Shown here: positions 59,995-60,012 of the stretch, piece by piece | How the letters are laid out: every line of letters starts with the position of its first letter | Numbering within the stretch: position 1 is the first letter of the stretch | Assembly (NCBI RefSeq): GCF_056712565.1 | Contig: NZ_CM160072.1 | Direction: 5' to 3' (one strand) | Length of the DNA: 64,000 bases | The notes under the pieces: generated by a model | The model's database searches: none | Told to the model about the DNA's origin: nothing | What the model saw: the letters and a program-made list of their open reading frames with translations, nothing else | Made by a program: the position numbers and the translations under genes

Positions 59995-60012
59995 TCATTC
60001 CCACTCAATTAT
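59995..60012 (-). mobile_element. Remnant of the guaA 3-prime end (minus strand reads stop-I-I-E-W-E-stop); probable prophage attR core
   Basis: Hand translation: rc of 59998..60009 is ATT GAG TGG GAA, followed by TGA (59995..59997), with an in-frame TAA two codons upstream (60013..60015); GMP synthase ends ..TIEWE as I recall. Confidence 0.6.

Follow-up and report, generated by a model that had tools for sequence, protein, structure and literature searches.

Genes and features on the two sides of the junction

The window, meaning the whole 64-kb stretch of DNA that was analysed, carries close to its right end a junction between host and phage genes. To the left lie the host genes ppx, pdeF, yfgG, yfgH, and yfgI, which are collinear with those of E. 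coli K-12, and the left flank next to the junction (yfgI and the terminator that follows it) remains collinear with the empty yfgI-guaA junction of K-12 up to position 60009. To the right, about 4 kb of phage DNA lies within the window, and all the phage genes in it are on the minus strand. The features are as follows:

59362-59901, plus strand: yfgI, the host gene nearest to the junction; a 179-aa ORF, annotated at the collinear position in K-12 and in APEC E18055
59943-59970, minus strand: rho-independent terminator of the host; a 12-pair hairpin followed by a T-run, identical to the K-12 empty site
59993-60009, minus strand: 17-bp att core ATTGAGTGGGAATGATT, almost certainly the attR copy; the guaA Ile-Glu-Trp-Glu codons, TGA, and TT
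60010-60119, no strand assigned: spanin-proximal attP arm kept at attR; one base off the attP of vB_EcoP_ZX5 and conserved in phiV10 and epsilon15
60081-60090, plus strand: ATACCGTCAC, putative arm-type site for integrase binding; found once in the window
60120-60602, minus strand: Rz-like i-spanin (DUF2514); phrog_312, E = 6.7e-59, with a DUF2514 annotation in related genomes
60128-60403, minus strand: Rz1-like o-spanin lipoprotein, embedded; lipobox LAGC
60599-60823, minus strand: 74-aa ORF between endolysin and spanin; phrog_2241 (no known function), E = 2.6e-25
60820-61446, minus strand: GH19 (chitinase-like) endolysin; phrog_181, E = 2e-90, annotated as glycoside hydrolase family 19
61436-61744 and 61731-62135, minus strand: two membrane proteins, holins or holin-like; matched to the holin families phrog_217 and phrog_198
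62442-64000, minus strand, running off the window end: tailspike gene for a K1 endosialidase (3' part); annotation: endosialidase beta-propeller protein

A sequence-only reading of this DNA had described everything upstream of a short guaA remnant as phage lysis DNA, and the phrog matches of the spanins, the GH19 endolysin, and the holins confirm that description. The Rz1-like ORF is as long as the annotated Rz1 of phiV10 and epsilon15 and is embedded at the same position. The closest phage is the temperate vB_EcoP_ZX5 (MW722083, Uetakevirus), to which 94% of the phage DNA in the window, with the lysis cassette and the K1 endosialidase tailspike, aligns at 99.4% identity; for the lysis cassette, identity falls to 88.9% in phiV10 and to 81.7% in a Salmonella E15-type phage. 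One difference from ZX5 is that it lacks the extra 225-bp ORF that the window prophage has between endolysin and spanin. This 74-aa ORF is present in APEC E18055, where it is annotated as hypothetical, and in GPEC1337, and it is also absent from most related guaA prophages, which, like ZX5, align to the window in two pieces with 94-96% coverage. Conceivably, this ORF is a small moron or an accessory lysis gene.

The part of the tailspike gene at 62471-64000 is 99.4% identical both to ZX5 and to siaK1 of the P22-like phage CUS-3, and the full-length gene in APEC E18055 (on the sequence L001) has 3120 nt. A K1 endosialidase tailspike that also matches other K1 phages sits on a Uetakevirus backbone here, which points to tailspike modules being exchanged among temperate podophages that are unrelated to one another and infect K1 strains. 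The tailspikes of phiV10 and epsilon15 target the O157 or the Salmonella group E1 O-antigen and not the K1 capsule.

The 17-bp core and the position of the breakpoint

The plus strand at 59990-60019 reads tcaaatcattcccactcaattatttacgat, and the minus-strand translation of 59995-60036 is LNWLWLS*IIEWE*, so that the order stop-I-I-E-W-E-stop given in the sequence-only reading is indeed found at the end of this translation. That reading had taken the segment for the last four or five codons of GMP synthase and had placed it at 59995-60012. The site was right and the coordinates were 2-3 bases off: the guaA-derived bases are 59993-60009, which read ATT GAG TGG GAA TGA followed by TT, exactly as guaA ends in K-12. 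The remnant thus amounts to four guaA codons with the stop, and the fifth codon does not belong to it. The codon before IEWE is Thr (ACC or ACT) in K-12 and in the intact guaA of the lysogen, and it is ATA (60010-60012) in the window; past the core, K-12 continues with ACC (Thr), GCT, and CCG, and the window with ATA and TAA. On these sequence grounds, the ATA at 60010-60012 and the TAA preceding it are assigned to phage DNA, outside guaA. The 17-mer ATTGAGTGGGAATGATT has a single match in the 64 kb of the window, also with up to 2 mismatches tolerated, against 0.01 matches expected by chance.

In order to define the breakpoint, we aligned attB (from K-12 MG1655), attR (from the window), attP (from vB_EcoP_ZX5), and attL (from APEC E18055). 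The only blocks common to the four sequences are the 17-mer and a terminator hairpin, and the flanks switch partners precisely at the edges of the 17-mer. The comparison with the unoccupied K-12 junction, which had been proposed together with the sequence-only reading, consequently sets the core at 59993-60009. A 241-bp query centred on the junction was also searched against 5426 complete E. coli genomes. The whole attR junction was matched in 527 of them; in the sampled genomes without the junction, the match ends at query positions 118-124, mostly at 120, which corresponds to window position 60009. Collinearity with empty sites therefore ends at this base, as expected from a phage that integrated at the 3' end of guaA, which is what had been proposed. 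Conversely, 567 of the 5426 genomes contain the attL junction (guaA, core, phage) in full, and the guaA site is occupied in about 10% of complete E. coli genomes. Comparing the 567 attL with the 527 attR matches, around 40 genomes seem to have the int-side arm at guaA and a far arm that is different or diverged; these could be other elements with the same integrase, or decayed prophages. A promoter scan gave no sigma-70-like site at either the attL or the attR junction, and an Rfam scan of the whole window gave no match at the junction. The sole hit of that scan above the gathering threshold is naRNA4 (RF02564, a nucleoid-associated ncRNA) at 11049-11130 on the minus strand, with 75.5 bits.

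The core is also known from the literature. The junction core attgagtgggaatgatt matches exactly at 59993-60009 and is the same as the published one (PMC9782041). In that study, the attB, attL, and attR of ZX5 were verified by PCR and Sanger sequencing, with attgagtgggaatgatt as the core in attP as well as in attB; the same sequence was stated as the attP of ZX5, phiV10, and epsilon15, and the ZX5 integrase was reported to have 98% homology with the integrases of the other two phages (PMC9782041). Another paper, with reference to Kropinski et al. 2007, names the 3' flank of guaA as the target of the epsilon15 integrase cluster (PMC8138268), and a third describes a phiV10-related phage inserted in guaA of an O103:H25 strain (PMC3293862). 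The statement in the sequence-only reading that the epsilon15/phiV10 group uses guaA as its integration site is thus borne out by reports on both phages, with the same 17-bp core and the same target, the 3' end of guaA, as in the window (PMC9782041, PMC8138268). Taking these lines together, we are nearly certain that the remnant at 59993-60009 is the attR core of a prophage of the epsilon15/phiV10/vB_EcoP_ZX5 type (Uetakevirus) at the 3' end of guaA.

The resemblance to these phages extends beyond the core. The Uetakevirus type members phiV10 and epsilon15 have the same ATACCGTCAC sites and the same attP layout, in which spanin, core, terminator, and int follow one another. The GenBank record of epsilon15 marks the 10-mer ATACCGTCAC as a protein_bind site of the integrase. 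This 10-mer occurs in three copies, one of them inverted, in the attP of ZX5 and is invariant in all four aligned sequences (the attR arm of the window and the attP regions of ZX5, phiV10, and epsilon15); because of this annotation, the invariance, and the repeated copies in ZX5, ATACCGTCAC is likely an arm-type site. We also considered a 14-nt imperfect inverted repeat (60002-60015/60025-60038) as an extra integrase site, and discarded it because it is not conserved in epsilon15.

The other prophage end and the terminator pair in related genomes

Special attention was given to the other end of the prophage, where the sequence-only reading had predicted a direct repeat of the core, an intact guaA, and an adjoining integrase gene. 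All three are present in the closest genome, APEC E18055 (O2:K1:H7), which is 99.9% identical to the window over 24.5 kb. Its gene order is xseA, guaB, guaA (1578 nt, intact), core, int, about 40 kb of phage genes, core, and yfgI; the two core copies, of 17 bp each, are at 6603-6619 and 47369-47385 of L001, 40,766 bp apart, which gives the prophage a span of about 40.8 kb. The GuaA protein of this strain has 525 aa, of which 524 are identical to those of K-12, and both proteins end in ...PPATIEWE, the C-terminus given in the sequence-only reading. The tyrosine integrase gene is found 190 bp past guaA on L001, and its product contains the domains Arm-DNA-bind_3, Phage_int_M, and Phage_integrase. 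A second strain, ExPEC XM, shares the attR junction of the window at 100% identity and has its attL junction about 39.7 kb away, a spacing that agrees with the ZX5 genome size of 39.6 kb.

The differences between the window and APEC E18055 over 58800-64000 are all on the phage side of the core (29 of 29, at 60022-63946). Eleven of the 29 cluster within 145 bp of the endolysin gene (61197-61341), and this cluster looks like a recombination patch rather than the outcome of clonal drift. It is important to note that, because the second end lies beyond the window and the closest genome in the collection is 99.9% identical and not wholly so, we infer the far prophage end from relatives; an intact attL, int, and guaA in the window's own genome are accordingly read from near-identical genomes.

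An alternative is a decayed or truncated prophage in this strain, in which attR would have been kept and the far end, int, or guaA deleted or rearranged. The window shows no more than about 4 kb of phage DNA, and the unequal counts of attL and attR junctions (567 and 527 genomes) mean that some genomes yield just one of the two ends at the search threshold. However, the visible lysis genes are intact ORFs, and in the nearest relatives the prophage is complete, with about 40 kb, and collinear with a phage that is viable and inducible, so we consider decay to be improbable here. Even less credit can be given to the idea that the IEWE-stop codons are a chance match beside phage DNA that arrived otherwise, through a different integration site or a rearrangement. 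It is true that 15-17 bases are few and that the window alone shows one junction, but a match for which the chance expectation per window is so low falls on the very base where synteny with K-12 and thousands of other genomes breaks off, and the same 17-mer is found in the attP of the matching free phage and at both prophage ends in relatives; such a coincidence is practically negligible.

The comparison of the two prophage ends also revealed a pair of terminators. The phage carries a terminator of its own (6664-6687 of L001, also at 19913-19936 of L003). Its stem matches the host guaA/yfgI terminator in every base, and the two elements have 27 of 29 bases in common, with differences in the loop only. 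The core is separated from the terminator by 44 nt on the phage side and by 24 nt on the host side. Before integration, the phage element lies between the lysis genes and int, and in the integrated state it follows guaA and precedes int; it is annotated in the phiV10 and epsilon15 records. The host terminator at 59943-59970 was originally common to the convergent genes guaA and yfgI and has stayed on the attR side, as had been claimed, where after integration it stands downstream of the Rz/Rz1 spanin genes. Since the two terminators are nearly identical, integration swaps like for like, and each transcription unit keeps an equivalent terminator. This swap may have a functional role, in which the host copy would end the phage late transcript. 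No description of the identity between the phage and host terminators was found in the phage records and later papers covered. As for its origin, attP might have arisen by capture of the whole 3' end of guaA together with its terminator from an enterobacterial host, the terminator then being kept by selection, a scenario that we put forward as conceivable and rather doubtful.

Integration at guaA and its significance

These data are consistent with the following course of integration. A lambda-like tyrosine integrase with an N-terminal arm-binding domain recombines attP, which the phage carries between its spanin genes and int, with attB, which consists of the last 15 bases of guaA and 2 more. 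Because the core holds the last four guaA codons and the stop, guaA would be restored exactly at attL: the gene would be regenerated unchanged at the int-proximal junction, and it would gain the phage-borne terminator there. The core copy at attR is a non-coding IEWE-stop stub beside the original guaA/yfgI terminator, which now follows the phage lysis genes. The earlier suggestion that attP carries a replacement 3' end of guaA holds in this restricted sense, as the replacement comprises only the core itself plus the phage-borne terminator. The sequence-only reading had also worded the remnant as being cut off by an in-frame stop, which could imply that the insertion damages guaA and yields a truncated or altered GMP synthase, but this is extremely unlikely, given that the attR stub is merely the duplicated core, that guaA of related lysogens is full length with an identical C-terminus, and that ZX5 lysogeny was reported to have no effect on growth (PMC9782041).

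The guaA prophages can be compared with the lambda-type integration at 3' ends that is known from P4-like and P22-like phages at tRNA genes. In both cases, integration relies on a tyrosine integrase that has an arm-binding domain, and the core overlaps the 3' end of the host gene, so that attP replaces the displaced end and the gene is regenerated. Unlike the tRNA-gene integrators, the prophage in the window has a protein-coding gene, guaA, as its target, and only four codons and the stop are duplicated.

The guaA site, the core sequence, and the phage family have already been published, and the integration site is thus a known one. Because of this, and because the site is filled in about 10% of complete E. 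coli genomes, our analysis adds no new biology. Its value lies in the correct annotation of this locus as the edge of a temperate podophage specific for the K1 capsule, in a chromosome of the ExPEC/APEC kind, with guaA most probably undamaged.
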